Shown piece after piece: positions 2,134 to 49,815 of a stretch of 64,000 nt of DNA; within the stretch, counting starts at the first letter, position 1, and the number at the start of each line of letters is the position of its first letter. Location: NCBI GenBank assembly GCA_016179185.1, contig JACORW010000101.1:2204-66203 (forward strand), in the 5' to 3' direction. The notes beneath the pieces were generated by a model that did not search any database, had not been told where the DNA came from, and saw only the letters and a program-made list of their open reading frames with translations. The translations under genes were made by a program, and so were the position numbers. This DNA comes from Gammaproteobacteria bacterium. Lineage in GTDB: Bacteria; Pseudomonadota; Gammaproteobacteria; Eutrophobiales; Eutrophobiaceae.

Positions 2134-2297
2134 TCGGCCGGCTGAAAGCCGGCCCCACAAGTTTACCCACAGTTCATCGCCACTCCTGTGGGGCCGGGTT
2201 TACCCGGCCATCTTCATACCCCGGCCGGCTGAAAGCCGGCGCCACAAGTTTACCCACAGTTCATCGCCACTCCTGTGGGGCCGGGTTTACCCGGCCA
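2134..2297. repeat. two tandem copies of an ~80-bp composite REP family 1 unit, immediately 3' of the RAYT gene
   Basis: ccggccggctgaaagccggc[cg]ccacaagtttacccacagttcatcgccactcctgtggggccgggtttacccggcc is present twice in direct orientation. Confidence 0.9.
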
Positions 2298-2770
2298 ATG
2301 TCACTGACCGTTTGTATCCACTCCAGCCATTTCGCATCCCACAACGGATAAACTCGAATATCCGAGACCAACCCCGCGCGCAGCGGATTGGCGACTATAT
2401 ATCGCGCAACTGTCGGCAAATCTTCTTCGTGCCGCAGCGCATGATCGTAGTATCCGCGTTGCCAAATTTTTCCCGATACACCTTTGGCACGATGGATTGC
2501 CCGGGTCGAACGACCCTTCAGCTTGCGCATGACATTTGACAGGGTGGCGTCCCTCCCAAGCTGGATGAGCCAATGCAAATGATCCGGCATCAGCACCCAT
2601 GCCATGGAATTCACCGCTCCGCACACGTGCAGCGCGCGCATTTCCCTGACCACCAGCCGGGCGACGATCAGGTCCGCGAACCATGGCGCCCGCCGTTCCG
2701 CGGTGGCCGTAACGAAGTAGAGCTGGTGTGGAATGGATACACGTCCTTTGCATAATTTGAAATATCCCAT
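2261..2770 (-). CDS. rayT: REP-associated tyrosine transposase (RAYT; IS200/IS605-like Y1 transposase)
   Basis: HxH motif (PDHLHWLIQ) and the C-terminal catalytic tyrosine region (IWQRGYYDHALR). An N-terminal YFVTA beta-strand is typical of RAYTs. AGGAGG lies 6 nt upstream of the ATG at 2770. The gene is flanked on both sides by doublets of REP family 1. The ORF-track extension to 2821 (MWGRLSAGR...) is a translation of the REP. Confidence 0.85.
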   Translation of the reverse strand: MGYFKLCKGRVSIPHQLYFVTATAERRAPWFADLIVARLVVREMRALHVCGAVNSMAWVLMPDHLHWLIQLGRDATLSNVMRKLKGRSTRAIHRAKGVSGKIWQRGYYDHALRHEEDLPTVARYIVANPLRAGLVSDIRVYPLWDAKWLEWIQTVSDIGRVNPAPQEWR

Positions 2771-2795
2771 CCATTGCCTCCTTGCCTGGATTCTC

Positions 2796-2935
2796 CGGCC
2801 GGCTGAAAGCCGGCCCCACAAGTTTACCCACAGTTCATCGCCACTCCTGTGGGGCCGGGTTTACCCGGCCATCTTCATGCCCCGGCCGGCTGCAAGCCGG
2901 CCCCACAAGTTTACCCACAGTTCATCCGACCCACA
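2796..2935. repeat. two tandem composite REP family 1 units immediately 5' of the RAYT gene
   Basis: Same ~80-bp unit as 2134-2297, in the same orientation. Confidence 0.9.
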
Positions 2936-5936: not shown

Positions 5937-5975
5937 GTGGGGTCTGACCCCATTCGGGGTCAGACCCCCTGCTCA
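5937..5975. repeat. family 2 palindromic element (GGGGTCTGACCCC-ATTC-GGGGTCAGACCCC)
   Basis: gagtggggtctgaccccattcggggtcagaccccctgc between the thioesterase and cpdA genes. Confidence 0.9.
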
Positions 5976-5985
5976 GAGCTCCTGT

Positions 5986-6771
5986 TCAGATTCTTACCAC
6001 TCGAGTGCACAGCGCGCCGCCCGGGAGCAGTTCCAGCACCCGGAATCCCGGCGCCAGCGGATCCACCGCGTACTCACCGCTGCCCGGCGCGAATTGTACA
6101 CAGGTGGAGGGCGTGCCCAGCAGCGGAATGCCGTTGCGCTCCATGCTGAACTCCTGATGAATGTGCCCCCAGACCATGCCGCGCACATTATTATATGCAT
6201 CGGTGACGTTGAGTAATTCGGGGCCGTTGTCCAGGCCCATGGCATCCATCCACGGGCTGCCGACGGGCACGGGCTGGTGATGCAGGCAGATCAATACCGG
6301 CGTCTCCCCCGCCGCGGACAATTCCGAACCTGCAAACGCCAGTTCTTCCGGCGAAAATCGGCCGCGATCGCTGCCGGCCAGCCAGTCATTCAACATCAGC
6401 ACGCGCCAGCTGCCGAAATCCATGATACGCGAGGTGCTGACCGCGCCTGCGTTCATCAGGCGCGCCATCATCACCGGGTCGTCGTGATTTCCGGCCAGGC
6501 ACACCACCGGGCAATTGCGATCACGGAGCAACGCGAGCAGTCGCGCGTACGCTTCCGGGATGGGGATGTCCACCAGATCGCCGGTCAGCACCACGCAATC
6601 CGGGCGCTCCGGTTGTGCGTCCACGGCGTCCAGCACCGCGGCCAGCGTGGCCGCGGTGTCTACGCCCTCAAATACCGTCGGCCCGGGATCGCAGGCGATG
6701 TGCGTGTCGGTGATTTGAACCAGCCGGATGCGCGCCGGGTCCCGGGGATGTACACGCAGTGCATGCGTCAT
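5986..6771 (-). CDS. cpdA: 3',5'-cyclic-nucleotide phosphodiesterase CpdA (calcineurin-like metallophosphoesterase)
   Basis: Metallophosphoesterase motifs DTH (VQITDTHI), GDLVD, GNHD and GHIH. Start taken at MTHALRVHP. The upstream ORF extension runs through repeat elements and a duplicated copy of the 5' end. Confidence 0.8.
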   Translation of the reverse strand: MTHALRVHPRDPARIRLVQITDTHIACDPGPTVFEGVDTAATLAAVLDAVDAQPERPDCVVLTGDLVDIPIPEAYARLLALLRDRNCPVVCLAGNHDDPVMMARLMNAGAVSTSRIMDFGSWRVLMLNDWLAGSDRGRFSPEELAFAGSELSAAGETPVLICLHHQPVPVGSPWMDAMGLDNGPELLNVTDAYNNVRGMVWGHIHQEFSMERNGIPLLGTPSTCVQFAPGSGEYAVDPLAPGFRVLELLPGGALCTRVVRI

Positions 6772-7008
6772 TGAGCTGGGTGGGGTCTGACCCCGTTCGG
6801 GGTCAGACCCCCGCGTCGGCCCCGGATCGCAGGCGATGTGCGTGTCGGTGATTTGAACCAGCCGGATGCGCGCCGGGTCCCGGGGCTTCACATCCAGAGC
6901 TGGCTGGGGTCTGACCCCATTCGGGGTCAGACCCCTGTTTCGCGTCATAGTTTTGCCGCATGGTGCCGCATGGGGTCTGACCCCATTCGGGGCCAGACCC
7001 CTGCGTTT
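6690..7008. repeat. cluster of three family-2 palindromic elements (6783-6812, 6905-6940, 6968-7005). The first is flanked by a 62-bp or longer direct duplication of the cpdA 5' end (6696-6757 = 6820-6881)
   Basis: Direct reading: ggatcgcaggcgatgtgcgtgtcggtgatttgaaccagccggatgcgcgccgggtcccgggg occurs twice, separated by tgggtggggtctgaccccgttcggggtcagaccccc. Confidence 0.85.
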
Positions 7009-7011
7009 CGC

Positions 7012-9939
7012 TTACGGATCCTCGTTCAGAAGGCTCTCGTTCAGATCGATGTGATAATGGTCATCGTGTCCAAGGAGCGGCTTGATCGTCGAGCTGAGCG
7101 TTGCACCCGCATCGAGTTCCAGAAGTACGGTGTTATCCGCTGCGGTGATTTTTCCGTCCCGGATCAGGCCCCAGGCCCAGCCACTCGGAAGCGGGTCATG
7201 GGGACGGCCAATGATGGTGAATACCTCGCCGACAATGGGATTGCTCGCCAGATTGGCCAGACCGGTCCGCTGGTCGAGGATCCATTGCCTCAGCTCCTCC
7301 GTCGCAGCCTCATCCCCCAGCACGGCATTGGTCGCCAGTTCCTCCGCCGCCAGATAGTTCAGCAAACCGAAGGGATCATCAGTCCCGGCACTGTAAAGTA
7401 CGTCGCCAAAATGGAAGATGTCTATGTCGGTTCCGGATTTGTGGCCCGCATGCCCGATGTTTCGACCATGCTCCCCCGAAATGTCGTTTATCCGAGTGAT
7501 CAGCGACCCGTACGTTTCCAGCCACTCGAATGTTCCCTTCGAGGCCCAGTCATCACCGCCGACATCCCGCTTTCCGCCGTAGCGGAGAATACCATCGGGC
7601 ATGCGCCACAGCGCCTTTTCAGAGCCGCTGTAGAGCGTGGCGCTCGCCGGCTCACCGTTCACGGTTGCCTCAAACTGGAATTCATACTTGATGTTGTGCG
7701 CCTCAGGCGGCGTTCCATTCACCGGTGAGGTCCTGGGGTTGTCGCCGCCAAAGGTAACCGGCACCCGAAACTCCCTGGGCCCGTAACCCGCCGTAATGGG
7801 TTTTCCGCTGAACGCTGTTTTGCCCAGCGTATCGCCTGCCCCCAGCAACAGTTTGACCGTGACATTGGTGATGTCCGCGGCCTTGACACCGGCCGGAGAT
7901 ATGATCTTGAAATCGTACCACTTGTGAAAGTGGTTCGAACTCAGCCGGCGCGGCACGCTGAAGAAGGTTCCATCCTTGTCCGATCCGGGCATAATCAACT
8001 GGATGTTCAACTCCTGGCCGGCCACCGCGAGCGTCGCGTCCACATAGGTCGGCAGGATGTCGTCGCCGATATTCGTTGCCGACCCCGTCACCGTGATCGC
8101 CGCGTCCTGATCAACGGTGAGCAGCGAGACGTCCAGTGACTCCTTGATTAGCCCGGTGGATCCGGTGGGATCCCAGAAGGGTTCCAGGCTCACCTGCGAA
8201 TTCACGTTCCGTGATATGGAAAACAGCCGCGTCCCGTCGTTGGCAACAACGGCGAGGTCCCAGACATCGTTAAATATACTTTGCGAAAGCACGAATTCCG
8301 GATATTCGGTGGTGATGACCTGGTAGGTCAGTTCCAGTTTTTTCGTACCCATGGGCACCAGCAGTGTCGCCGTGTCCTGGACGCGCTGGTCCTCGAAATC
8401 GGCCGCCGCGCTGATCGTGACCTGCGCCGTCGCCGCGGCCACCAGTCCCTGCGGCGGTGCCCGCGGCACATCCGGCGCCTTCGCGCTTTTTCTCCTGCGC
8501 TGCATTTCCATGGGCCGCGGTTTCAGCAACGCGGGCGCGCTGATGATCGAAAACGGCGGCACGCCATTGACATAATCTTCCGGACCCAGCAGCGTGATCT
8601 CCAACTGCGTCGCGCCCGTGACAAAAAGCGCGCCGCTGCTGCTGTAAGTGACTTCTCCTTCCTGGTGCTCCAGTTCGAATGCGACGTTTCCCGCGGGCAC
8701 GCCGGTGAGCGTGAAGCTGCCGTCCGCCGCGGTGGCGGCGAACGCCTCGACCTTGGTCCCGAGAACGCGAAACAGGATCTCAGCGCCCTGCGTGGACAGC
8801 TCGGGATTGGATGGCGGCGCAACCACCTGGCCGGAGAGCGAATAACGACCGACACGGAAGGAGAGTGTCCCGTCCAATGACGTACCGTTGGCGGTGCTCG
8901 CGGAGACATGCAGGATCTGCTCGCCGTCCACGCCGAGAATATCGCCAAGGTAGGCTTCCGAAACGGTTCGGATCTCGCCGTTGCCGAGTATTTCAAAGCG
9001 ATCCGTGACATCCACGGTCGTCCCGGTCTGCACCTGTTCCACACTGGCGTTTCCCAGTTGAGTCGGCACCAGCGCGCTGCCGGAGGAGTTCCTGAAAGTC
9101 ACGCTCAACTCGGATGTCGAGGCGGGAACCACCGGGGAAAGATCACCGGTCAGGCGATGATCCAGCGCCACGGCCAGGCCCGCTCCGGTCATCAGCAGCT
9201 TGACCGTCTTGGTCGTGTCCCGGCGGATGGTTACCAGCTTTCCCGCCCCGGCCAGGTAGGGGTCGAAGGCAGTCACGCGATGTTTGCCTGCCGTAGCCTG
9301 GAAATCCAGCACGCCGTTATCCAGCGTCTCGCCGACGAGCTCATTGTCCAGATAGACGGGGATCCCGGCGGCCGCGGGATTCTTCTTGCCTTCGTAAAAC
9401 GTCTGCACGGAAATCGTCCCGGTTCCGGAGTGTTCCACGGATATGCTGACATCAATGGCGGACAGCGGTCGCGCGCCGCTTTGCAATGCAGCGGTCAATT
9501 TTTTCCGTTTCAGGGAGGCAACCTGGACGTCGCTGGGCAATTCCATGAACTCGGTCGCGCTGGCTGCCGCCTTGCCGAACAGGACGATGGAACCCGTGAC
9601 CGTATCTTTCGCCAGGGTTTCGCTTGGAGTGACGATCAGCGTCAGCGTCAGGGTCTGGCCGTTCGCGAGACTTTCTACGCCTCCATACTCGATTGTGGCG
9701 AATTTTGCGATGCTCTTGCTGAGCAGCACCTGGAAGTTGCTGATGGCAAGATTTGCCGTAATGGTGTTGGTCCGGGACACCGTCTGGCCGGCATTGGCGT
9801 TTACGTTCCATTCTGCCTGCGCCCAGTCCACGGCGTTGGCGGCATGCGCCGGCGTGGATACCAGAGTCACAAAGGAGAGGCAGAATATTGCGGTCACCGC
9901 AAGATACTGCGGAAGCATGAGTTTGCGAATATTTAGCAT
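7012..9939 (-). CDS. large secreted multidomain protein with a C-terminal MepA-like (peptidase M74/LAS-family) murein endopeptidase domain
   Basis: Signal peptide MLNIRKLMLPQYLAVTAIFCLSFVTLVSTPAHA, with GGAGG 7 nt upstream of the ATG at 9939. The C-terminal motifs GHAGHKSGTDIDIF and GHDDHYHIDL match the HxxxxxxD ... HxH zinc ligands of MepA-type LAS metallopeptidases. The remainder is beta-rich repeats. Confidence 0.55.
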   Translation of the reverse strand: MLNIRKLMLPQYLAVTAIFCLSFVTLVSTPAHAANAVDWAQAEWNVNANAGQTVSRTNTITANLAISNFQVLLSKSIAKFATIEYGGVESLANGQTLTLTLIVTPSETLAKDTVTGSIVLFGKAAASATEFMELPSDVQVASLKRKKLTAALQSGARPLSAIDVSISVEHSGTGTISVQTFYEGKKNPAAAGIPVYLDNELVGETLDNGVLDFQATAGKHRVTAFDPYLAGAGKLVTIRRDTTKTVKLLMTGAGLAVALDHRLTGDLSPVVPASTSELSVTFRNSSGSALVPTQLGNASVEQVQTGTTVDVTDRFEILGNGEIRTVSEAYLGDILGVDGEQILHVSASTANGTSLDGTLSFRVGRYSLSGQVVAPPSNPELSTQGAEILFRVLGTKVEAFAATAADGSFTLTGVPAGNVAFELEHQEGEVTYSSSGALFVTGATQLEITLLGPEDYVNGVPPFSIISAPALLKPRPMEMQRRRKSAKAPDVPRAPPQGLVAAATAQVTISAAADFEDQRVQDTATLLVPMGTKKLELTYQVITTEYPEFVLSQSIFNDVWDLAVVANDGTRLFSISRNVNSQVSLEPFWDPTGSTGLIKESLDVSLLTVDQDAAITVTGSATNIGDDILPTYVDATLAVAGQELNIQLIMPGSDKDGTFFSVPRRLSSNHFHKWYDFKIISPAGVKAADITNVTVKLLLGAGDTLGKTAFSGKPITAGYGPREFRVPVTFGGDNPRTSPVNGTPPEAHNIKYEFQFEATVNGEPASATLYSGSEKALWRMPDGILRYGGKRDVGGDDWASKGTFEWLETYGSLITRINDISGEHGRNIGHAGHKSGTDIDIFHFGDVLYSAGTDDPFGLLNYLAAEELATNAVLGDEAATEELRQWILDQRTGLANLASNPIVGEVFTIIGRPHDPLPSGWAWGLIRDGKITAADNTVLLELDAGATLSSTIKPLLGHDDHYHIDLNESLLNEDP

Positions 9940-9969: not shown

Positions 9970-10000
9970 AGCTTACCAATTGGGGTCTGACCCCATTTGG
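9970..10000. repeat. degenerate or half family-2 palindrome
   Basis: ttggggtctgaccccatttggagt between the 975-aa gene and the M4 protease gene. Confidence 0.6.
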
Positions 10001-10014
10001 AGTTACTTTACACC

Positions 10015-13000
10015 CTATTGATCCAGCAGGAATTCCCGGATTGCCTCCAGGATTGACGATGCTGCCCGCTCATTCACGCGCGGATTCCTGCCGGTGTCAG
10101 CTTCCACCTTGTCGTTCACTCCGTCGCCGTCAGTGTCGCTGTCGTTTGGCGCAGTGCCGAGCTGGAATTCCTCAAAATTGGTCAGGCCGTCGGCATCGCC
10201 GTCCAGGTCGCGGTCCTGGTCGCTCAATGGATTCAGCCCGTTATCGCCCTCATAGCCATCGGCCATGCCATCCCCATCGGAGTCCGGTGCATTCACCAGC
10301 GTTCCCAGTTGCGACTCCTCGAAATTCGTGAGCCCGTCCGAATCGAGATCCAGATCTCTGTCAGCGCCATTCAGCGGGTCAAGGCCATGTTGAATTTCAT
10401 AGTCGTCCAGCATCCCGTCGCCGTCATCATCCACGTCACTGACATTGCCCGTCCCGTCACCGTCCGTGTCCAGTTCGAAATTGACGGTCAGCGCGACGTC
10501 CTGGGTCACGGTGAAGGCACAGGCGGCGGACGCGGATGAGCAGAGATCGGAGCCACCCCACGCCGCAAAGACGGAATATGGGTCGGCCACCGCCGTCAGC
10601 GTCACCAAAGAATCCTGCGGAAAACTTTCCGAACAATCGTCGCCACAGACGATCCCCGCCGGCACCGACTGAACGAGGCCGGTTCCCGTCGCCGCCGGAT
10701 CCTTTGCCACGGAGACATTGAATCCGATCGGCGCGGTATAGGCGCCCCGGCGATAGATCATGCCGAAGTCTCCGTCGCTCAACCACAGACTCTGCCCCCC
10801 GCTCAGCGTGATCCTGTCGCTCTGCACGGCCTGGCTATATAAAGAGGATCCGGTCGCCGCGCCGGCGTCGGGTTTCGAGAACACAATCGCCCCATCGTCC
10901 CCCGTATACCCGGGAACCGAGTAGGAGTAACCGGGAATGGCCGCAATCAGGCCGACCTGGCCGGTAAACAGATCGCCGGCGTAGGCATTCGCCTGGGAGA
11001 TCCCGGACTGGAAGGCATCGAAAGTCAGGAACCGATCGCTGGTCTGCGACAACGCCGGAAAGCCGGTATCCAGTCCCTGGATGGGCGCCACGATCATGCG
11101 GATCTGCGACGTGGAAAGTTCCACGGCGTAAATGCTCCATAGCCCCAGTGCCGATCCGCCGGTATAGGTGACCTCGTTGAATGCGTCGTAGATGAGCGAC
11201 TTTCCGTCCCGGCTGAAGTCCATCGCGTCCGCCGTCACGACGTTTATCGTGCCGCCGTCAATTGCCGGCGCTTGCAGCTTGATGGTTCGATCATTGCTGC
11301 TATCGGCGAGATCCACGAATTCGATCTTGTTTTCGGGGAACCCCTGCGCGTCCAGCAGCACAAATGCAAACTGCTCTCCGCTGGGGGAAACCGCAACGGA
11401 AAATACCAGGCCCGGCAACCCCAGGCACGATTCGACTTCACTCACGCCGGCATTGGTGTTGATTGCGCAGAGATCGTTGATGGAATCCACAAACCAGGCG
11501 AGGGCCCCGTCGCCGGTGACGCTCGGGCGCGTAAATGCAACGGTGCCGCCGCTCAGAAATACCCCGACCGGACCGTCGTTCAAGGCCGTTTCCCGGCGCC
11601 CGAGGAAGAAACCGCCGTAAAACGAGTCGTAAAAAACGAACGCCGTGGAATCGGGGCTGCTTATGGGCGGCTGAGTCGGCGGCGGCGGTGTCGGGGGCGC
11701 AGCGAAGATTTCCACCGCGTCGAATGCCGCGGCGGTCGTGTTCGCCTGGACCGATCCCGCGCCGAACAGTTCTTCGGCCGCCGCGACGGCATTCAACCGC
11801 GCATCCACAAAGTCGGCATCCGGAAACAGCTTGGTGGTCAGGGCCCGATAAAATATTTTGGCTGCATCGAGCGTGCCGATGGCGCCGGGGAGTCCTTCCG
11901 CCAGCAGGTAGAACGCATGATTGACTATGCTGCTGTTGAGATGCACGCCGCCGTTATCCTGCGTCGTGTTGATGTACCCGCTCATGCTTGATGGGCAGGG
12001 AACGCCGAGGCAGTCCACGCTGCCCGGATTTTTCATGTTCCGAAATACCTGGCCGACGTCCTCCCCCACCTTCCAGTCTGCATCGCCCTGCGTACGCGTT
12101 TCCACCATCACGCCGAATATGTCCGCAAGCGACTCGTTCAGCGCGCCGGACTGGCCCTGATAGATCAGATCTGCGGTCGAACTGATCACGGCGTGGGTCA
12201 TTTCGTGGGCCACCACGTCGAGCGCGCCGGCATAGATCCGCTTGTCGCCAAAGGCCATGATTTGATTGCTTGCATCCCAGAACGCGTTGTCGAAATCGAG
12301 CCCGAGTCGCACCAATGCCTGCATGTTCGCGCCCTGCCCGTCAATGGAATTCCTGGCATGTCTTTCGAGGTAGTAGTCATAGGTCTCCGCCAGCGCCCAG
12401 GCCGCGCTCACCGCATCGGCCAGCCATCCGGAGTTCGGATTGGCGGATACCACGTCGGATAGCGGTGTCGGGTAGGACTGGGGATCAGAAGTCGCCGGCT
12501 TGTTCTTGGCATCCAGCACGATGATGCCGCCGATGGTCTGTGACGGGTTCGGAGGCGTGGACGACGGGTTGTACATCGTCTTGCTGGTGTCAACCATATA
12601 GTAGCTGGCGCCGGACTGCCAGACATCGAGAGCACGGCTGATGCCGAACAGATCGAGTCCCGATCCCTGGACATTTGCATTCATGATCCGGTTGAACTTC
12701 CTCAGCACGTTGCCGTGCATGGCATCCACGATTACCACCCAGCTCTCGCTGACGGAGACATCCACTTGGGTCTTCCAGGCTAGCCGGTAGGGCGCATCCC
12801 GCGGCGCAAACACGATGAGTTCGGGTGCGGCCACCCCGGCGTGTTCGTCCGCAGTGACTTCGCTGCGCGCCAGTGCCATCGCCCGCCCCTGGTCCACGGC
12901 CGGCCGATCCAGCAGTTTCCGCGGAATGACCCGGTGGGCGCCCGCCATGAGGTCCACGTGCCCCTGCCCGTCCAGTTGCACCAGCAGCCCCGACGGCCAG

Positions 13001-13596
13001 ACCCGCAATCCCCTGTGCCGTTGCTCGAAGCGGACCTGGGTGCGCCCGAGCTCATCCTGACCCTGGCCAAGAAAGCGGTACTCCTGATCCGGATCGCCCA
13101 CGCCGATTACGTTCCGGTACTTGCGCAGAAACTGCTCGGCGGTGGCCCGTGAGCTGGGCAGGCCTTCCTGGAGCTTGATGCCCCGGATCTGACGCGGGGT
13201 CCCGGTGCGGGAATCCATGCGCACTTCCAGGGGGCGGAGCAAAGGCGAAATCTGTTGTGCCGCGATACTTCTTGTCCGCTGCACCGATTTGATGCCGCCG
13301 CGGGCCGTGCTCCTTGCCGCCTGGGCACCGGGTGCTGATGTTGCGCGCCATTGCGCGATCCAGGTCTTGAGCTGAACTATCCGGGGATCCGCGGCTCGAC
13401 CGGAGGCCGGCGCGGTTGCATGGATCGCGGGCGCACTGGACGCGGGGATCAGCTTGACCTGGGTCTGGGCGCCTTGGGTCTGCGCGGCCGATGCCGCCGG
13501 CAATCCTGCCAGAACGAGAACACTCCAAACACACTGCCGTCGCAGCGTATTAACGCGGGGGTTTGCGGAGCGCATCTTGTTGTAGTTCTTATGCAC
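10015..13596 (-). CDS. giant secreted M4 (thermolysin-like) zinc metalloprotease with InlB-B-repeat-like, Ig-like and C-terminal calcium-binding TSP3-type repeats
   Basis: HExxH (VVAHEMTHAV) and the downstream ESLADIFG glutamate motif of family M4. N-terminal signal peptide (start ambiguous: GTG 13596 or ATG 13575). C-terminal repeats DxDxDGxxDxxE (DTDGDGTGNVSDVDDDGDGMLDDYE...) and the tail GRNPRVNERAASSILEAIREFLLDQ are shared with the S8 giant. Confidence 0.8.
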   Translation of the reverse strand: MHKNYNKMRSANPRVNTLRRQCVWSVLVLAGLPAASAAQTQGAQTQVKLIPASSAPAIHATAPASGRAADPRIVQLKTWIAQWRATSAPGAQAARSTARGGIKSVQRTRSIAAQQISPLLRPLEVRMDSRTGTPRQIRGIKLQEGLPSSRATAEQFLRKYRNVIGVGDPDQEYRFLGQGQDELGRTQVRFEQRHRGLRVWPSGLLVQLDGQGHVDLMAGAHRVIPRKLLDRPAVDQGRAMALARSEVTADEHAGVAAPELIVFAPRDAPYRLAWKTQVDVSVSESWVVIVDAMHGNVLRKFNRIMNANVQGSGLDLFGISRALDVWQSGASYYMVDTSKTMYNPSSTPPNPSQTIGGIIVLDAKNKPATSDPQSYPTPLSDVVSANPNSGWLADAVSAAWALAETYDYYLERHARNSIDGQGANMQALVRLGLDFDNAFWDASNQIMAFGDKRIYAGALDVVAHEMTHAVISSTADLIYQGQSGALNESLADIFGVMVETRTQGDADWKVGEDVGQVFRNMKNPGSVDCLGVPCPSSMSGYINTTQDNGGVHLNSSIVNHAFYLLAEGLPGAIGTLDAAKIFYRALTTKLFPDADFVDARLNAVAAAEELFGAGSVQANTTAAAFDAVEIFAAPPTPPPPTQPPISSPDSTAFVFYDSFYGGFFLGRRETALNDGPVGVFLSGGTVAFTRPSVTGDGALAWFVDSINDLCAINTNAGVSEVESCLGLPGLVFSVAVSPSGEQFAFVLLDAQGFPENKIEFVDLADSSNDRTIKLQAPAIDGGTINVVTADAMDFSRDGKSLIYDAFNEVTYTGGSALGLWSIYAVELSTSQIRMIVAPIQGLDTGFPALSQTSDRFLTFDAFQSGISQANAYAGDLFTGQVGLIAAIPGYSYSVPGYTGDDGAIVFSKPDAGAATGSSLYSQAVQSDRITLSGGQSLWLSDGDFGMIYRRGAYTAPIGFNVSVAKDPAATGTGLVQSVPAGIVCGDDCSESFPQDSLVTLTAVADPYSVFAAWGGSDLCSSASAACAFTVTQDVALTVNFELDTDGDGTGNVSDVDDDGDGMLDDYEIQHGLDPLNGADRDLDLDSDGLTNFEESQLGTLVNAPDSDGDGMADGYEGDNGLNPLSDQDRDLDGDADGLTNFEEFQLGTAPNDSDTDGDGVNDKVEADTGRNPRVNERAASSILEAIREFLLDQ

Positions 13597-13629: not shown

Positions 13630-14001
13630 CTAATCCGCGATCTCGACCCGGGTCGCCTTCGGCACGCCGCCTTTCCACGCGTAACACCCGCTCATGCCGA
13701 AGCCGACGTTTTTCTGCAGCGAATACGCCGTAAGCGCCGCACTCAGCATGGCCTTCTTGTCCGGGGCGTCTTTCCAGTCAATGACAATATGACTGTATTG
13801 AAACTGCCCGCCGCAATTCAGTTCATTCAGGTATTCCGGGGAAAACTGGACGACGGCGTAGGTGGCGTAAGTAGTGATGGCGGTAATTGACGCTGCCGGC
13901 GGTGACGGCGTCGAATCTTTGACGGCCAATGCCGGAAAACTCGCAAATGCCGATACCAACGACGCCACGACCCATCCCCCGAAACTCTTTGCGGTTTTCA
14001 T
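13630..14001 (-). CDS. small secreted two-cysteine protein, paralog A (unknown function), immediately upstream of the M4 protease gene
   Basis: Signal peptide MKTAKSFGGWVVASLVSAFASFPALA, with GGAGG 7 nt upstream of the ATG at 14001. About 75% identical to the 24034-24405 product (conserved stretches KDSTPSPP...LNCGG...VIDWKDAPDKKAMLSAAL...GC..WKGG.PKATRVE). Confidence 0.75.
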   Translation of the reverse strand: MKTAKSFGGWVVASLVSAFASFPALAVKDSTPSPPAASITAITTYATYAVVQFSPEYLNELNCGGQFQYSHIVIDWKDAPDKKAMLSAALTAYSLQKNVGFGMSGCYAWKGGVPKATRVEIAD

Positions 14002-14048
14002 ATTCGACCTCCAGCGCATGGTCAAGAAAGTATAGCGTTAATCTCCTC

Positions 14049-15266
14049 CTACACCACCAGCTCGTTCAGCCCCAATATCGCCACCAGCACCGACATGATG
14101 ATCAGCGCAATCAGACCGCCGAGTCCGAGGATCAGGACCGGCTCCAGCAACGCCAGCGCCCGCTTGATCGCGATGCGCACATTCCCGTCGTAGATCTCGG
14201 ACGTTTTGAGCAACATCTGATCCAGTTGGCCGCTCTCCTCACCCACTTCCATCAACTGCACCGCGAGCGGCGGAAACAGTCCCGACTTGCGCAGCGGGCC
14301 GGTGAGCGGCAGGCCCTGTTCCAGGCTGGCGCCCATGTCCTCGACCACGGCGGCCAGCGCGCGGTTCCTGACCACGTCGCCCGCGAGACGGATGCCGGTC
14401 AGGATCGGAACGCCGCTGCCCAGCAGGATCCCCAGTGTGCGCGTAAACCGCGCCGTCTCGAACTCCCGGATCACGGTGCCGATGAGCGGCAGCCGGAGAC
14501 AGGCCAGGTCCCAGCGCAAGCGCGGCGCCGGTTGTTCAAGCCGCTTCTTCACGATCCACCCGAGCACAACCAGTCCCGCAAGCAGCGGCAGCCAGGCGTC
14601 GCGGGCGATCCCTGCGGCACCAAACACGAGCCGGGTCAGTAACGGCAGTGTTGCGCCGGCGTCCTCGAACAACGGAATGAACTGCGGCACCACGAACACC
14701 ATGATCGCCGCGAGAGAACACAGCGCCACGACGCACAGGAGTGCGGGATATATCAGCGCCGTCTGGACCGCGGAGCGCAATTCCTGCGACTGTTCCAGGT
14801 AGGTGGCCAGGCGATCGATGACCGGGGGCAGTTCACCGGCAGCCTCGCCCGCGCGGATCAGGTTCACATGCAGCGCAGTGAAATGACGGGGATGCTGCGC
14901 CAGCGCTTCGGAAAGCGATGCGCCACGCTGCACGCTGTCCTGGATCTCCTGGATCAGGCGTTGCAGGGGCGGCGACTGCACGACTCTCGCCAATGTGATG
15001 AGCGCTTCATCCAGCGCCAGACCGGCCTGCAACAGCGTCCCCAACTGCCGCGTCAGGGCGATGATATCCCCGCGCGAAATCAGGCGGGGTCTGACCCCGA
15101 ATGGGGTCAGACCCCATTTCCACGTTGCAATACCCGGGTCCGCGCTGATGGGCAGGTGCCCCTGATCGCGCAGTTGCGCCACCGCGGCGTCCCGGGAGTC
15201 AGCCTCGATCTCCCCCTGTACCACCTGGCCGCCGGGCGCGACGGCCTTGTAGCGAAACTGCGTCAT
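14049..15266 (-). CDS. gspF: type II secretion system inner-membrane platform protein GspF
   Basis: About 405 aa with two GspF/PilC-type repeats (...ALTRQLGTLLQAGLALDEAL...), three TM segments, and operon context with gspE. Contains an in-frame family-2 palindrome (WGLTPFGVRP). Confidence 0.9.
   Translation of the reverse strand: MTQFRYKAVAPGGQVVQGEIEADSRDAAVAQLRDQGHLPISADPGIATWKWGLTPFGVRPRLISRGDIIALTRQLGTLLQAGLALDEALITLARVVQSPPLQRLIQEIQDSVQRGASLSEALAQHPRHFTALHVNLIRAGEAAGELPPVIDRLATYLEQSQELRSAVQTALIYPALLCVVALCSLAAIMVFVVPQFIPLFEDAGATLPLLTRLVFGAAGIARDAWLPLLAGLVVLGWIVKKRLEQPAPRLRWDLACLRLPLIGTVIREFETARFTRTLGILLGSGVPILTGIRLAGDVVRNRALAAVVEDMGASLEQGLPLTGPLRKSGLFPPLAVQLMEVGEESGQLDQMLLKTSEIYDGNVRIAIKRALALLEPVLILGLGGLIALIIMSVLVAILGLNELVV
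15084..15115. repeat. family-2 palindromic element located in-frame inside the gspF coding sequence
   Basis: gcggggtctgaccccgaatggggtcagacccc on the plus strand, translated within GspF as W-G-L-T-P-F-G-V-R-P in the variable linker between the N-terminal domain and the first conserved repeat. Confidence 0.85.
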
Positions 15267-32365: not shown

Positions 32366-32406
32366 GGGGTCAGACCCCGGGGTCAGACCCCGGGGTCTGA
32401 CCCCGG
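32366..32406. repeat. three tandem half-sites of the family-2 palindrome (GGGGTCAGACCCC x2, then GGGGTCTGACCCC) in the gspG upstream region
   Basis: ggggtcagaccccggggtcagaccccggggtctgaccccgg. Confidence 0.85.
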
Positions 32407-32450
32407 TTAACCGCGGTCAACCGATTAACGCGGTTAACGATTCGTTAACG
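32403..32450. promoter_or_regulatory. candidate operator: inverted repeat GTTAACCGCG-N13-CGCGGTTAAC plus a third GTTAAC, in the divergent promoter region between gspG and the 32537 gene
   Basis: ggttaaccgcggtcaaccgattaacgcggttaacgattcgttaacg. Dyad symmetry lies 120-170 bp upstream of the gspG start codon. Confidence 0.35.
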
Positions 32451-44557: not shown

Positions 44558-46300
44558 ATGAGTTCGATGACCGCCAGAGTGAAATTGCGTTTCACAGGTA
44601 TTGCGCTGGCACTGGCCCTGTTTTGGACGCCGGCCGTTGCGTCCGTCGCCAACGGTGACTGGGACCGGTTTGTTTCCGATTACGTCGAGGCCACGTTCAA
44701 GGCGCAGCCGTACTTCGCGGTGCAGGCCGGACGCCATGAATTCGACGGACGCATGCCGGACTGGAGCAAGTCGGGGATCGAGACCGAGATCGCGCGACTG
44801 CGACAGGCGCGCAGTGCTGCGGCTGCATTCGCTGCAGCGACGCTTTCTTCCGCGCAGCAATTCGAGCGCGATTACCTCGTTGCGACGATGGACAACAGCC
44901 TGTTCTGGCTGGCGAAGGCGGGATTTCCGTTCCGCAACCCGGCCTGGTATGTGAATCAGCTCGATCCGGAGGTCTATTTGTCGCGGGAGTACGCGCCGCT
45001 GGCGCAGCGCCTGCCCGGATACCTTGGGTATGCAAAGGCCATCCCCGGCATTGCCGCAAATATCCGCGCCAATCTGCGCACGCCGCTGCCGAAAAGTTAC
45101 GTGGAATACGGCATCGCCGCGTTCGGCGGGTTCGCGGAATTTTACCGCAATGATGTGCCGAAGGTCTTTGCCGGCATCGCCAACCCGCCATTGCAGAAGG
45201 AACTGGCTGCTGCGAATGCAGCCGCCGCCGACGCCATGGGAGAACTGAAGGACTGGTTCGTCTCCCAGCGCGCCGCGGCGAATGACGATTTTGTGCTGGG
45301 CCCCGACTTGTATGCAGCCATGGTCCGGGACACCGAGAGAGTAGACATGACCATTGCGCAACTGGAAGCCGCCGGCCGCGCCGATCTGGAACGCAATACC
45401 GCCGCATTGAAAAAAGCCTGCACCGAACTCGCGCCGGGAAGCTCCCTGCGCGAGTGCGTCGGCAGAGTGCAGGATCGGAAACCGGCCAGGGGACCCGTGG
45501 CAGAGGCGCGCGTCCAACTGGTCAGCCTGCGGAAGTTCATTGACGAGAAAGGCATCGTTTCGGTGCCGGGCACGGACATCGCGCTGGTTCAGGAATCGCC
45601 TCCGTACAACCGCCAGAATTCCGCCTACATCACCATTGCGGGCCCCTTTGAAACCGGCGTCGCGTCGGTCTACAACATCTCTCCCCCGGATCCGGCCTGG
45701 ACTCCCGAAGAACAGGCTGCCTACATTGACGGCGAGGCGGAACTGCTGAACACGTCCGTACACGAGGTGTGGCCGGGGCACTTTCTGCAATTCGTGCATT
45801 CCAATCGCAGCAAGTCCGTCGTCGGGCGGCTATGGGTGGGTTATGCGTTCGCCGAGGGCTGGGCGCATTACACCGAGGAACTGATGTGGGAGATGGGGCT
45901 CGGCAACGGAAATCCGGAGAACCATATCGCGCAATTGCTGGACGCGCTGTGGCGCAATGTGCGGCTGCTGTCGTCCATCGGCCTGCACACCCAGGGCATG
46001 ACCACCGACACCTCGGAGAAGATGTTCCAGGAATTTGCGTTCAGCGATGCGGGCAATGCGCGGCAGCAGGCCCGCCGGGGAACCTACGACCCGGCATATC
46101 TCAACTACACGCTGGGCAAGCTGATGATCCGGAAACTGCGCGATGACTGGGTGGCGCGGCAGATGGCAGGCAAACCGGGTGCCGATCCGAAGTCATTCTG
46201 GCGTGCGTTTCATGACCAGTTCCTGTCCTGGGGCGGCCCGCCGATCCCGCTGGCGCGCCGGGCGATGCTGGGCGATGAGGACCAAGGGCCGTTGCTTTAA
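44558..46300 (+). CDS. DUF885-family secreted protein (putative metallopeptidase-like)
   Basis: Signal peptide MSSMTARVKLRFTGIALALALFWTPAVASVA and the conserved SVHEVWPGHFLQF (HExxPGH) motif of DUF885. Confidence 0.7.
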   Translation: MSSMTARVKLRFTGIALALALFWTPAVASVANGDWDRFVSDYVEATFKAQPYFAVQAGRHEFDGRMPDWSKSGIETEIARLRQARSAAAAFAAATLSSAQQFERDYLVATMDNSLFWLAKAGFPFRNPAWYVNQLDPEVYLSREYAPLAQRLPGYLGYAKAIPGIAANIRANLRTPLPKSYVEYGIAAFGGFAEFYRNDVPKVFAGIANPPLQKELAAANAAAADAMGELKDWFVSQRAAANDDFVLGPDLYAAMVRDTERVDMTIAQLEAAGRADLERNTAALKKACTELAPGSSLRECVGRVQDRKPARGPVAEARVQLVSLRKFIDEKGIVSVPGTDIALVQESPPYNRQNSAYITIAGPFETGVASVYNISPPDPAWTPEEQAAYIDGEAELLNTSVHEVWPGHFLQFVHSNRSKSVVGRLWVGYAFAEGWAHYTEELMWEMGLGNGNPENHIAQLLDALWRNVRLLSSIGLHTQGMTTDTSEKMFQEFAFSDAGNARQQARRGTYDPAYLNYTLGKLMIRKLRDDWVARQMAGKPGADPKSFWRAFHDQFLSWGGPPIPLARRAMLGDEDQGPLL

Positions 46301-46362
46301 TGGGGTCGGAGTGAATTATTTTTGGGCATCGCACCAAATGAATTCACTCCGACCCCATTTTC
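46298..46362. repeat. family 4 palindromic element (~62 bp), left boundary of the AT-rich island
   Basis: taatggggtcggagtgaattatttttgggcatcgcaccaaatgaattcactccgaccccatttt. Confidence 0.9.
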
Positions 46363-46380
46363 CGAAAGTAAGATTTCGAG

Positions 46381-46833
46381 TTGCTGAAATTGAATTCACA
46401 TTTCCGATGCGCGTCGTGTGGGAGGCTTGAGGGTGACCTTTCAGACGGGATGGAAAGCGTCACGTTTCTTGGAATGAAATGGTGTCCAATTTGTGCACGA
46501 ATTGGGAAGGGGCGGGAAGGAAGAAAATTTATTTCTATGCCGAGCCCAGGGCGGATGTATGAAAACACTCGGGACGACCCACTGGCTGCGTGGGAGGATT
46601 GCTTCGAGAAGAGACCTAAGAAGCGGATATTGGTAGAGGATGCCAAGGCAGAAATTCGAAGGGCATTGGATCACTGGAATGGGGATAAGTCTTCCGGCTC
46701 GGCAATGCCTGTGTTCTTTGGATGGTTAAGTCGCCACCGCCCATATTTTCTTACGTTTCGAGGACGTGGAGATACATGGCAAAAGGTGCATAGCTGGCTA
46801 CTACAGTATGAGCGTGAAAAAAGTGGCCGCTGA
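46381..46833 (+). CDS. hypothetical zinc-ribbon protein (CxxC...CxxC), island gene 1
   Basis: CASCGRLEG ... CPICARIG cysteine pairs. AT-rich codon usage, distinct from the flanking genome. Start uncertain. Confidence 0.4.
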   Translation: MLKLNSHFRCASCGRLEGDLSDGMESVTFLGMKWCPICARIGKGREGRKFISMPSPGRMYENTRDDPLAAWEDCFEKRPKKRILVEDAKAEIRRALDHWNGDKSSGSAMPVFFGWLSRHRPYFLTFRGRGDTWQKVHSWLLQYEREKSGR

Positions 46834-46897
46834 TTCGTTGGCTCGTCTAGTCAAAGAATGTGGGGGCAAATTTGACTAACACCGAGAGGGTGCTCGG

Positions 46898-47425
46898 ATG
46901 CGGGTCATACTGATTATTTTTCTAATCTGGGGGCTTTGGGCATCGATCTCAATGGGCGGTTTATACAAGCTCAGGCAAATGAACGCTGAGTTCGACTATC
47001 CAAATAAGAGCGTGCCATTTCTTCTTTCCAAACTCAGTTACTCACAATCAAATGGGTATTGGGATAGTTACCACGTAGAACAGTGCTCCTTATACATGCC
47101 CAATTGGACAAAGGCAGAACGCTGTGTGACAGCACGACTTTCTTGCGAGTATGTTGCTACACAAAAGAAAAACCTATTAAAGGACGGAGAGCATGCAGAT
47201 ATTTTTTCAGACGAGTTTCACTCATGTTGGTTAGAGAATCGTCCGTTATTCGGGCCAGTTGAATGGTTGCGCGCCTCTCGTGGCCTACTAAGGGCTGCCG
47301 TTGTTTTTGGAGTTACGTGGTTGACAGGTGGTTGGGATAAAGAAGGTGAGGAGGCGTTGAAATGGGAGAACAACAACAAAGGCTGGGTAAGACCGTTGAT
47401 CGAGTGGATGGAGAGAGCAGGTTGA
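46898..47425 (+). CDS. hypothetical membrane-anchored protein, island gene 2
   Basis: N-terminal TM (MRVILIIFLIWGLWASISMGGLY). GGATG-preceded start. No known family. Confidence 0.5.
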   Translation: MRVILIIFLIWGLWASISMGGLYKLRQMNAEFDYPNKSVPFLLSKLSYSQSNGYWDSYHVEQCSLYMPNWTKAERCVTARLSCEYVATQKKNLLKDGEHADIFSDEFHSCWLENRPLFGPVEWLRASRGLLRAAVVFGVTWLTGGWDKEGEEALKWENNNKGWVRPLIEWMERAG

Positions 47426-47456
47426 GGTAAGAGTATTAGAGTTCAGGACCACGGAT

Positions 47457-47520
47457 AAATGGGGTCGGAGTGAATTATTTTTGGGCATCGCACCAAATTA
47501 ATTCACTGCGACCCCATTTT
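47457..47520. repeat. family 4 palindromic element
   Basis: aatggggtcggagtgaattatttttgggcatcgcaccaaattaattcactgcgaccccatttt. Confidence 0.9.
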
Positions 47521-47540
47521 AAGAGCACGACTTCGATGGC

Positions 47541-48371
47541 ATGTATTATCCAACAATACGTTCCGGGTGCCTTCGTATGCCAGCAACTAATTCCATGAGC
47601 AACGAACCCCTCTTAGATCTATACGATTCGTTTTTCAAAACCGCATCGACCCCTGCAGAGCTAACTTCGCGCCTCTCTTGTCCTCTGCTCCTAAGTGTCG
47701 GGTCGGGCTGGCATCAGGCCATTCGTCGTCTCCTCGTTGTGGGCAAGGAGACTTTTGGATGGGATTGGACACCGGGCGATTATTATCCGTGGCCACACCC
47801 CCCGCTAACTACACTTGCCGACTTCAATGGCTACCCAAATGCCGTCCGCGCGCTGGTTGACGGCTACGCTTCATTCGCATTTTCAAAGCATCAATCAGCT
47901 AATTTCAACGGCCCTTTCTGGCGAGCGTTCCGCCAGTTGCACGAAGAAATCAATGAAGGCCACAAAGCAGATATTCTTTGGACCAACCTGTTCAGATGCG
48001 ACCTCGAGGGCGGTTCGGTAATTGATCGGGCCACTCCCGCCGAACTGAACAACATCCTGGCGTTTCAGCATGGTTTGCTAAGCCGCGAGATACGCATCCT
48101 TTCGCCAACCGCCGTCGTCTTCTTCACCGGACCCAACTACGATCTCGCCCTCCGCGCCGAGTTTCCAGACATTGTTTTTGCCCCAGTCTCCGGCCATGTA
48201 GAGCGGCAGTTTTGCCAGATCGCCCATCCTGACCTACCGACGCCGTCGTTTCGCATTTATCATCCGAATTATCTAGCGCGGAATCACAACAGATGGCTTT
48301 GGCTTCGGGAAGTAGCGTCGTATATTGCCACGTCTACAGCGATGCCCGGAAGAGGTCCAGAACACCATTAG
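47541..48371 (+). CDS. hypothetical protein with weak uracil-DNA-glycosylase-superfamily-like motifs, island gene 3
   Basis: The motif order resembles the UDG-superfamily fold: VVGKETFGW (GExPG-like), WTNLFRCDL (xTNvvKCrP-like), AVVFFTGPN (central strand), IYHPNYLARN (HPSPLxx-like). Speculative. Confidence 0.45.
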   Translation: MYYPTIRSGCLRMPATNSMSNEPLLDLYDSFFKTASTPAELTSRLSCPLLLSVGSGWHQAIRRLLVVGKETFGWDWTPGDYYPWPHPPLTTLADFNGYPNAVRALVDGYASFAFSKHQSANFNGPFWRAFRQLHEEINEGHKADILWTNLFRCDLEGGSVIDRATPAELNNILAFQHGLLSREIRILSPTAVVFFTGPNYDLALRAEFPDIVFAPVSGHVERQFCQIAHPDLPTPSFRIYHPNYLARNHNRWLWLREVASYIATSTAMPGRGPEHH

Positions 48372-48444
48372 TCGTTTGAGCGTAACCGCACATACATCGT
48401 TAACCGCCGAATAAATTGCAATTATCGATGACAGGTAGCGCTAC

Positions 48445-48879
48445 ATGACTGTACTCAAAATCCTTGCTTTCTTGGCTGTACTGGCCGCGTTGGTATGGTC
48501 TGCGCGCGCATTGAACGAATACTCCGAAGAAAAATATAGATATCATCCGTTCAATGTAGGGAATACGTTCACTATGGTTCTTTCAATCGTCCTGTTCGTT
48601 ATAGCTGTGCTCGTGCTGCCTGAGGGCCAGACTCTGAGCGCAGTCCTATCTGATGCCGTGAAGCTCAATGTCACGGAGGAGACCTCAAATACTGTTGTGC
48701 TGATTGTTCTAGCGGCCTTAGTCGCAGTGATCGTGTACGTACACACTGCTATGAAGTCAAATATACTGATCGCGACGTATGCCATGATTGTGCAATTCCT
48801 TGCGGCACTCCTCATTTTTGTGATTCTTGTCCTTGCGCTCATGAGCACAGGTTCAAAGCACAAACGACGATCGCGTTGA
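48445..48879 (+). CDS. hypothetical integral membrane protein (4 TM), island gene 4
   Basis: Four hydrophobic segments, with a basic C-terminus KHKRRSR. Confidence 0.5.
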   Translation: MTVLKILAFLAVLAALVWSARALNEYSEEKYRYHPFNVGNTFTMVLSIVLFVIAVLVLPEGQTLSAVLSDAVKLNVTEETSNTVVLIVLAALVAVIVYVHTAMKSNILIATYAMIVQFLAALLIFVILVLALMSTGSKHKRRSR

Positions 48880-48989
48880 AAAAGACTGGCCATCAGCCAC
48901 AAGATAACGCACTTACTCACACGGCTATGCCCCGAGATTAAGACATCGTTAATGTGTAATTAAACGTAGCCGCGTCAAAAAAGAAAAAA

Positions 48990-49020
48990 GGGGGTCGGAG
49001 TGAATTAATTTGGTGCATCG
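48990..49020. repeat. left arm of a family 4 palindrome, overlapping the 3' end of the second RAYT gene
   Basis: ggggtcggagtgaattaatttggtgcatcg. The matching right arm is 760 bp away at 49784-49815, so the RAYT gene lies between the two arms. Confidence 0.8.
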
Positions 49021-49712
49021 GCATTGGTTTCGCGGCATGGACGACCAATTTTGCAATGTCCAATCTTTCGACCGAGTGCAGATTCTACCTCAGCGCGGAA
49101 TCGCGCGTTACCCACCGGGTAATTGTAGGCTAGACATTGCCGGATGTGATGAATGTCGTCGTCCTGGAGCGGGGACCTGAACCATTCCCGATAGGCCCAC
49201 TGCCGTTCGGCATCACTGGCGCCCAATTGGAGATAGAGAGGATGTTCATTCAGCAGGTCGTCCGTTTCGCCCCAGGCATGAGATCGGTATGAGGACCAGC
49301 GATATTGTTCTGGCGCCTCAACCATGCCTGCCGCCACCGGGTTCATCTCAATGTAGCGCATGCAGGTCAGCAGAAAATCGGATGCATGCACAAGACTCGC
49401 TTTGTGGCGTCCCTCCCAGAGCGTGCCGGTACGCCGATAGGCACGGTTTACATACAGCACATAATGCCGTCCAACATGCTGCATGACCCGGGAAATGCCC
49501 GAGGCGTCACTCGGCGTCATCAGCAAGTGCACATGGTTGGTCATCAACACGTAGGCATGCAAGGCAACGCCAAAGCGCCGTAATCCTTCGCCCAGGCAGC
49601 GCCGATAGAACAGAAAATCATCCGGGCAGAAAAAACTGGCACTGCGGTTGTTGCCGCGCTGCACGACATGTGCCGGAATACCGGCCAGATACATCCGTGT
49701 CTTTCGAGGCAT
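49005..49712 (-). CDS. second REP-associated tyrosine transposase (RAYT, distinct lineage from 2261-2770)
   Basis: HVHLL (HxH) motif, LWEGRHKASLV, YIEMNPVAAGMV and the C-terminal Tyr region (YRWSSY). The N-terminus MPRKTRMYLAGIPAHVVQRGNNR is typical of ~230-aa IS200-like REP-associated transposases. Confidence 0.8.
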   Translation of the reverse strand: MPRKTRMYLAGIPAHVVQRGNNRSASFFCPDDFLFYRRCLGEGLRRFGVALHAYVLMTNHVHLLMTPSDASGISRVMQHVGRHYVLYVNRAYRRTGTLWEGRHKASLVHASDFLLTCMRYIEMNPVAAGMVEAPEQYRWSSYRSHAWGETDDLLNEHPLYLQLGASDAERQWAYREWFRSPLQDDDIHHIRQCLAYNYPVGNARFRAEVESALGRKIGHCKIGRPCRETNADAPN

Positions 49713-49783
49713 GGCAACTCCATTGCCACTCTGTTAAAGATTACATCCGGATCATCCTGAAATCTCCGACCGGATGCAATCAC

Positions 49784-49815
49784 GCACCAAAATAATTCAC
49801 TCCGACCCCATTTTT
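49784..49815. repeat. right arm of a family 4 palindrome, 5' of the second RAYT
   Basis: gcaccaaaataattcactccgaccccattttt. Confidence 0.8.

Follow-up and report, generated by a model that had tools for sequence, protein, structure and literature searches.

A REP-like hairpin repeat read in-frame within the interdomain linker of the type II secretion protein GspF, with no net change in linker length

Introduction

The palindromic elements of Rickettsia (RPEs) are said, in the account given by Ogata et al. in 2000, to lie in-frame within the genes of functional proteins and to encode an extra peptide at the protein surface. RPE-1 is longer than 100 bp and adds 30-50 aa. Repeats of another kind, the REPs and REPINs, are reportedly coupled with RAYT proteins in systems termed REPtrons (the work of Nunvar et al. 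in 2010 and of Bertels and Rainey in 2011), and the REP between malE and malF of E. coli was reportedly recognised by Newbury et al. in 1987 as a stabiliser of mRNA.

REPs are also found inside genes: a minority of the GTAG- and CGTC-tagged units lie wholly within ORFs for known proteins and are read in-frame, and it has been argued that such units are tolerable in flexible linkers or loops and that they are related to the Rickettsia RPEs (Di Nocera, De Gregorio and Rocco 2013, PMC3733652). The presence of REPs inside genes, plausibly in flexible linkers or loops, is thus an already known category (PMC3733652), and intragenic palindromic repeats are usually described as harmless loop insertions. 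What may be new in the cases described here is that two of the three in-gene copies leave the length of the host protein with zero net change, and that in-gene copies are conserved at the nucleotide level. Coordinates refer throughout to the window, by which we mean the whole 64,000-nucleotide stretch of DNA that was analysed.

The hairpin in gspF

The palindrome that the initial annotation placed inside gspF at 15084-15115 is present, with its start corrected: the element, GGGGTCTGACCCC-GAAT-GGGGTCAGACCCC, occupies 15086-15115 (Table 1). The plus-strand letters are GGGGTCTGACCCCGAATGGGGTCAGACCCC; the minus-strand reading is GGGGTCTGACCCCATTCGGGGTCAGACCCC, directly preceded by a T, as in all other copies. 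The two 13-bp arms are perfectly complementary, the 4-nt loop itself is not palindromic, and the arm, GGGGTC-W-GACCCC, is a near-palindrome in its own right. The element is base-identical, preceding T included, to the two exact extragenic copies that start at 5939 and 6906. Matches to the 30-mer expected by chance number 0.00 (100 shuffles), against five full copies found. Since all 30 bases and the preceding T match other copies exactly, chance resemblance is excluded, and the gspF copy is confirmed as a genuine member of a dispersed family of hairpin repeats.

Table 1. Positions of the gspF element, its host gene and linker, and the other copies of the repeat in the window
Feature	Position	Strand	Remarks
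Palindromic REP-like element in gspF	15086..15115	-	13-bp arms, coding-strand loop ATTC; CDS nt 152-181; encodes W51-GLTPFGVRP-60
gspF, T2SS inner-membrane platform protein	14049..15266	-	405 aa, intact; Pfam T2SSF x2
GspF interdomain linker	15054..15140	-	Residues 43-71 between LPISA and TRQL, 29 aa; from alignment
gspE, T2SS ATPase	15274..16992	-	Directly upstream of gspF; Pfam T2SSE and MshEN
Exact extragenic copy, loop ATTC	5939..5968	+	Between metallophosphoesterase stop and thioesterase start, both genes on the minus strand
Extragenic copy, loop GTTC	6782..6811	+	12 nt upstream of the real metallophosphoesterase start; between the halves of an 87-bp duplication
Exact extragenic copy, loop ATTC	6906..6935	+	
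Extragenic copy with one mismatch	6972..7001	+	GGGGCCAGACCCC, right arm
Lone 13-mer arm	9982..9994	+	Between two minus-strand genes
Three abutting 13-mer arms	32366..32404	+	A/A/T centres, loopless; upstream of gspG

As RNA, the gspF element is predicted to form a 14-bp hairpin (minimum free energy of -38.9 kcal/mol in a 70-nt context, z -4.4), located ~160 nt beyond the gspE stop codon and 151 nt into the gspF coding sequence. A unit of 30 bp with a 13-14-bp stem and a 4-nt loop has the size and shape of a REP in the broad sense of that term. On each strand two of the three reading frames are free of stop codons (and read as GLTPxGVRP or GSDPxRGQTP); the third contains TGA.

The linker of GspF

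The in-frame reading of the element as WGLTPFGVRP, which had been noted at the outset together with an intact gspF frame, is correct, and so is the judgement of intactness. The gene product carries two T2SSF repeats (PF00482, E 2e-59) and the N-terminal domain, and its gene lies in a gsp cluster (gspD, gspG and gspH are near gspE-gspF), all of which identify it as GspF. It aligns with its homologs over the full length, with both T2SSF domains present, which makes gspF an intact and presumably functional gene; the best 120 full-length homologs span 404-419 aa. For P0001, a protein identical to the GspF of the window, a PF28597 assignment is available precomputed.

The first T2SSF domain begins at residue 72. 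In the AlphaFold2 model of GspF (pLDDT 84), residues 47-59 constitute the sole segment with pLDDT below 50, and this segment joins the N-terminal beta-alpha-beta domain to the first T2SSF helix. Both observations confirm the proposed location of the element, in a variable and disordered linker between the N-terminal domain and the first GspF repeat.

The closest orthologs of GspF are P0002 (74% identity) and P0003 (71%), and the DNA of both was compared with that of the window. Linker length was measured between the anchors LPISA and TRQL/TREL in an alignment of 26 sequences, and then in the 120 best homologs. The linker has 29 aa in the GspF of the window, in P0002 and in P0003 alike, and 28-33 aa in the 120 homologs, with a mode of 31, the three proteins just named constituting a clade in which it is 2 aa below that mode. 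The first 300 nt of gspF align with the DNA of both orthologs without any gap. The proposal that the 10-aa segment is an insertion relative to element-free GspF proteins is contradicted by these equal lengths and gap-free alignments. Both flanks keep their register up to 1-3 residues from the element, as is evident from A47, W49, I64 and D68, which the GspF of the window has in common with both orthologs. In between, the 10 codons beneath the element encode only 2 of 10 residues in common with each ortholog, and DNA identity to the orthologs across the 30 bp is 0.33 and 0.40. Between the orthologs themselves it is no more than 0.43 in this segment, so the linker is variable in sequence and fixed in length. 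Residues 51-60 of GspF are thereby marked as freely replaceable; the length of the linker is not.

Among the 120 GspF homologs, the peptide encoded by the element is confined to the window's own protein. A Smith-Waterman search with the 31-mer found no decayed copy in the gspF DNA of P0002 or P0003 (the scores equal those of a codon-shuffle null, and the best matches fall outside the linker), and the 13-mer arm is absent from both ortholog loci. Equal linker lengths, the gap-free DNA alignment and the lack of a decayed copy in the orthologs together point to acquisition in this lineage: the gspF copy is a lineage-specific acquisition in a disordered linker, with zero net change in length. The comparison with orthologs had been conceived as a choice between insertion and chance resemblance, with identical linker length and similar sequence as the signature of the latter. 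The length is indeed identical; the sequence is not similar, and it matches the other copies exactly. Neither insertion nor chance fits these data, and what remains is acquisition with a matching loss of ~30 bp.

Copies elsewhere in the window and in other genomes

The window holds five full copies and two partial sites, and the gspF copy is the sole one truly located in a coding sequence. The extragenic copies first noted near 5937, 6783, 6905 and 6968 are there. The one listed at 32366 is not a 30-mer: it is made up of three abutting 13-mer arms. To these sites the lone arm at 9982-9994 has been added. The copies at 6782, 6906 and 6972 have the same loop orientation (RTTC on the plus strand) at spacings of 124 and 66 bp, and the extragenic copies of the window sit between co-directional genes. 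Coding sequence is depleted of the repeat: one of five independent sites is coding, at a coding density of 82% (P = 0.004).

The 5' end of the metallophosphoesterase gene has undergone an 87-bp direct duplication (6676-6762 and 6814-6900, 92% identity) that has the 6782 copy of the element between its halves and two further copies upstream. All three copies are traversed by an open frame; homologs place the real start of the gene at ATG 6770. An ORF that runs through the 6782 and 6906 copies (5986..6948) was considered as a second in-frame case in the window and rejected, because its extension is not conserved protein: the alignments of all 150 best homologs begin between query residues 61 and 96, and 149 of these begin between 61 and 77. 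At the other partial site, the three abutting arms upstream of gspG run directly into short repeats containing GTTAAC/TTAACG (ggttaaccgcggtcaaccgattaacgcggttaacgattcgttaacg) in the region 32366-32450.

Species-representative genomes were searched with the 26 specified bases of the core and any loop, and metagenomes with the 31-mer of the window (loop RTTC). The core is found in more than 117 stretches of the species-representative genomes, mainly in Duganella and Rugamonas (where the loop is usually GTAC) and in Marinobacter (loops GTTC, ATTC and GAAC), with scattered matches in actinobacterial and other metagenome-assembled genomes; the 31-mer is found in 57 metagenome stretches. The number of 13-bp stems in 596 Gb is such that isolated matches to the 26-base core in remote phyla may be hairpins that arose by coincidence. 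In number, then, the copies are also like REPs in the broad sense: many, dispersed, near-identical and mostly extragenic. A copy was scored as in-gene when an ORF spanned it with coding-type GC periodicity on both sides, and such copies are rare (~2 of 125 in the genome loci; one gene among 62 metagenome copies). A literature search with the 12-mer and 13-mer sequences returned nothing relevant.

In a Planctomycetia metagenome-assembled genome (L005:1927-3984), an amino-acid permease and a protein-L-isoaspartate methyltransferase occupy one 685-aa frame that passes through a copy of the hairpin, and constitute either a read-through fusion or two genes separated by a terminator without an in-frame stop. 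With its loop AAAA and the T-run that follows, this copy looks like an intergenic terminator hairpin and was left out of the in-gene count.

In-gene copies in lpxK and in a SARP-type regulator

In lpxK of Duganella flavida (L082:2334-3473) the element is read as GSDPVRGQTP. Many of 120 LpxK homologs (336-442 aa) contain this peptide, either as such or in a decayed or duplicated form, and element-free alleles are 13-16 aa shorter at the loop concerned. The Duganella lpxK copy is a real in-frame insertion that has added ~13 aa to a loop of unconstrained length. The lpxK of D. sacchari and an allele of 95.9% DNA identity are distinguished by one indel of 39 bp, which includes the element and is bounded by ACCCC / ACTCC. 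From the D. sacchari allele the element appears to have been deleted precisely, and the indel shows that slippage deletions occur at the hairpin. The palindrome is resident in-frame in the hypervariable LpxK loop across many Duganella species (homologs P0121-P0240); in P0216 the element is duplicated, and P0199 (422 aa) has runs of SGSGPD-like repeats resembling partial copies.

The analogy with the in-frame elements of Rickettsia, drawn in the initial annotation for gspF, is thus apt for Duganella lpxK, which has the same core, read in-frame as an added peptide, tandem expansion included. It fails for gspF, in which the linker retains the 29 aa of the orthologs and no extra peptide results. 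The hairpin family is also unlike the RPEs in being only 30 bp long and in residing in free-living Proteobacteria and Actinobacteria.

The third in-gene case is that of a 572-aa SARP-type regulator encoded on three contigs (L166:12363-14081, L165 and L178), with the element in the linker before a transmembrane helix. Its orthologs (82% identical) have 575 aa and a linker 2-3 aa longer, so the element has brought no net gain. The organism, of 70-71% GC, has the peptide LGSDPVRGQTP in this SARP/BTAD-TM-beta-propeller protein, and related homologs are annotated Gaiellaceae.

Conservation was assessed in five Duganella lpxK alleles that are 78-87% identical gene-wide. In the 45-bp flanks 28-39 of 45 positions match, against 27-30 of 30 in the element; 3 of the 30 sites of the element are variable, against 52 of 120 in the flanks (P = 8e-5; third codon positions, 58%). 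In the D. aceris copy the central T and A have been exchanged between the arms, a compensated swap that leaves the palindrome perfect. The paucity of variable sites and this swap argue that some force holds in-gene copies constant; that force could be selection for the hairpin, gene conversion or palindrome-templated correction. Conservation of nucleotides far above that of the encoded loop implies that a force acting at the level of DNA or RNA dictates a stretch of protein sequence, and the Duganella lpxK series is a tractable system for deciding which of the three keeps hairpins perfect. Since the lpxK copies are nearly invariant while their flanks diverge, a copy need not be young to be perfect, and the gspF copy may be old despite its perfection.

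How gspF may have acquired its hairpin

We put at slightly better than an even chance the proposition that the gspF 30-mer is a copy of a dispersed REP-like hairpin, acquired in this lineage and kept by virtue of its linker site, its open frame and the preserved length. For the course of events we infer an in-frame insertion accompanied by the loss of ~30 bp of directly adjoining linker; this is the likeliest history, with about an even chance of being right. The element would have been inserted in-frame within the sole disordered linker of GspF, and the adjoining ~30 bp would have been lost either before or after. The loss would have been driven by stabilising selection on linker length, fixed at 28-33 aa, and the copy would have survived through the conjunction of a disordered site, a stop-free frame and a total linker length that was kept. 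The reason for favouring insertion with compensating loss is that net gain is found where length is free (the LpxK loop, unconstrained in length) and not where it is bounded (the GspF and SARP linkers): growth of the host protein appears, in three in-gene cases, to depend on the constraint on linker length. That protein growth should track linker length constraint, and that an in-gene repeat should be conserved more as nucleotides than as a protein loop, are both points absent from the earlier treatment of intragenic REPs (PMC3733652). Against this history, the loci compared include no closer relative, the next GspF being 74% identical, and neither an empty site nor an intermediate with 10 additional residues is found among the homologs. 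The lost 10 codons must have lain directly beside or under the element, and for that a single replacement would be a more economical account than a pair of events. The hairpin family has no mobilising enzyme linked to it, and the length rule rests on those three in-gene cases.

Such a replacement would be a single-step overwrite, in which the element was copied over 30 resident bp, for instance by break repair or template switching with another copy as template, so that the mechanism and not selection preserved the length. Two independent in-gene cases (GspF and the SARP regulator) with zero or slightly negative net change in length accord with it, as does the fact that the block exchanged in GspF coincides exactly with the 10 codons beneath the element, both flanks being in register. 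Yet the same core in Duganella lpxK is a length-adding 39-bp indel between alleles of 95.9% DNA identity, no homology that could guide conversion reaches past the edges of the element, and a SARP linker 2-3 aa shorter than those of its orthologs implies an inexact exchange. We take overwriting seriously as a possibility without favouring it. More far-reaching, and doubtful, are two further propositions: that the hairpin within coding sequences is no passive passenger but a selected nucleic-acid element, kept base-perfect over long spans of time, in part through compensatory arm swaps, and able to displace an equal length of linker, which in gspF would tune gspE-gspF as an RNA or DNA structure, or that the family spreads by a copy-over mechanism undescribed for REPs.

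A plain Rickettsia-like insertion of 10 aa, into an ancestor with an unusually short linker of ~19 aa, has in its favour that the family does insert plainly and in-frame elsewhere (lpxK), and that the clade of the window, P0002 and P0003 already has a linker 2 aa below the mode. We nevertheless think it unlikely: the shortest linker among the 120 homologs has 28 aa, and two element-free sister proteins have exactly 29 aa, with gap-free DNA alignments.

The notion that the hairpin is kept in gspF for a function in cis (as a binding site in DNA, or as an RNA stem that sets the GspE:GspF ratio by shielding the mRNA upstream or by slowing ribosomes) draws on the very stable predicted RNA fold, on in-gene lpxK copies that are much better conserved than their flanks and in which a compensatory swap has maintained the pairing, and on the location of extragenic copies between co-directional genes, as is reported for REPs (PMC3733652). 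That conservation is equally explicable by gene conversion or palindrome-templated correction, however, the gspF copy lacks a T-run and does not look like a terminator, and the element-free orthologs function without the hairpin. A function in cis is accordingly an improbable reason for its retention. Chance resemblance or an artefact of assembly has in its favour that the DNA comes from a metagenome-assembled genome, but the shuffles yield no match against the five full copies and 30 bp is less than one sequencing read, in a gspF that is colinear on both flanks and so shows no chimeric join; we give this next to no credence.

Class of the repeat and its mobiliser

The intragenic REPs already described (PMC3733652) resemble the present family: both consist of short, GC-rich stem-loops, located for the most part outside genes and between neighbours transcribed in the same direction. 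The hairpin family is unlike them in lacking a GTAG or CGTC tag and in having near-palindromic arms. Its 5' flank is always T-GGGG, GTGG occurs only at the 6782 copy, by chance, and CGTC is nowhere consistently adjacent. By this measure the family is REP-like in behaviour and outside the GTAG and CGTC superfamilies. The intragenic REPs have, moreover, been termed ORF-interrupting insertions (PMC3733652), and the gspF copy has zero net gain in length.

With the REPtrons the family has in common hairpin repeats of 20-40 bp, many near-identical copies and long persistence, and the window does hold a RAYT gene (2261-2821, minus strand; NF047646, an NCBIfam equivalog, at 150 bits against a cutoff of 80). 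This RAYT gene, however, has another repeat family, headed by GTGG, on either side, and the clustered hairpin copies are in direct orientation, not in the inverted pairs of REPIN/BIME doublets. In about 175 loci no RAYT gene was found beside copies of GGGGTCWGACCCC: tblastn with the RAYT of the window gave two weak matches, each more than 1 kb from any copy. The window RAYT was rejected as the mobiliser of the hairpin family on these two grounds, the other repeat family at its flanks and the want of a RAYT adjoining copies elsewhere. The RAYT locus is itself a REPtron (2120-2930), with tandem units of the second repeat family, of the form CGGCCGGCTGAAAGCCGGCCCCACAAGTTTACCCACAGTTCATCGCCACTCCTGTGGGGCCGGGTTTACCCGGCC, on both sides; this is probably the family that the initial annotation called family 1.

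The gspF hairpin resembles the malE-malF REP as a stable hairpin downstream of one cistron of an operon, which by analogy could protect upstream mRNA or uncouple neighbours. The malE-malF REP is intercistronic, and the gspF hairpin is inside the downstream coding sequence. A terminator search made no terminator-like call at the gspF copy, the only call near any of the copies being a 5-bp substem at 6988, and the gspF copy was rejected as an intrinsic terminator for want of a T-run or such a call. T-runs are present at unrelated copies, in L005 and L028. A search of the whole window against Rfam gave no match at gathering threshold. The repeat is not a MITE, in which terminal inverted repeats enclose a distinct core (70-300 bp) and target-site duplications are present: the whole unit is only 30 bp and coreless, and the flanks of the five copies have no common duplication. 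The first 10 bases of the element match what we take to be the terminal repeat of Tn3 (GGGGTCTGAC). We treat this as no more than a lead, having seen nothing else that is Tn3-like.

Neighbouring features of the window

In the most closely related gsp cluster (L001, the contig of P0002), an unannotated gene of 360 aa (8855-9937) lies between gspE and gspF, which abut in the window. A 131-aa ORF downstream of gspF in the window (13630-14025) matches an ORF that in L001 lies between gspD and gspE. Between gspE and gspD, at 17067-23924, the window has a 2285-aa subtilase-like ORF with 50.5% GC (against 60.9% for the window) and a weak codon-position GC bias, which suggests foreign origin; the region 46300-49800 also has 50.5% GC. 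This ORF and another at 10015-13596 are giant secreted-protease-like ORFs flanking the T2SS genes, and they have the same Asp-rich C-terminal module (D-x-D-A-D-G-L-T-N-x-E-E-x-x-L-G-T-A-P-N ... D-K-V-E-x-D-x-G-R-N-P-x-V-N-E), which could be a common sorting or calcium-binding tail.
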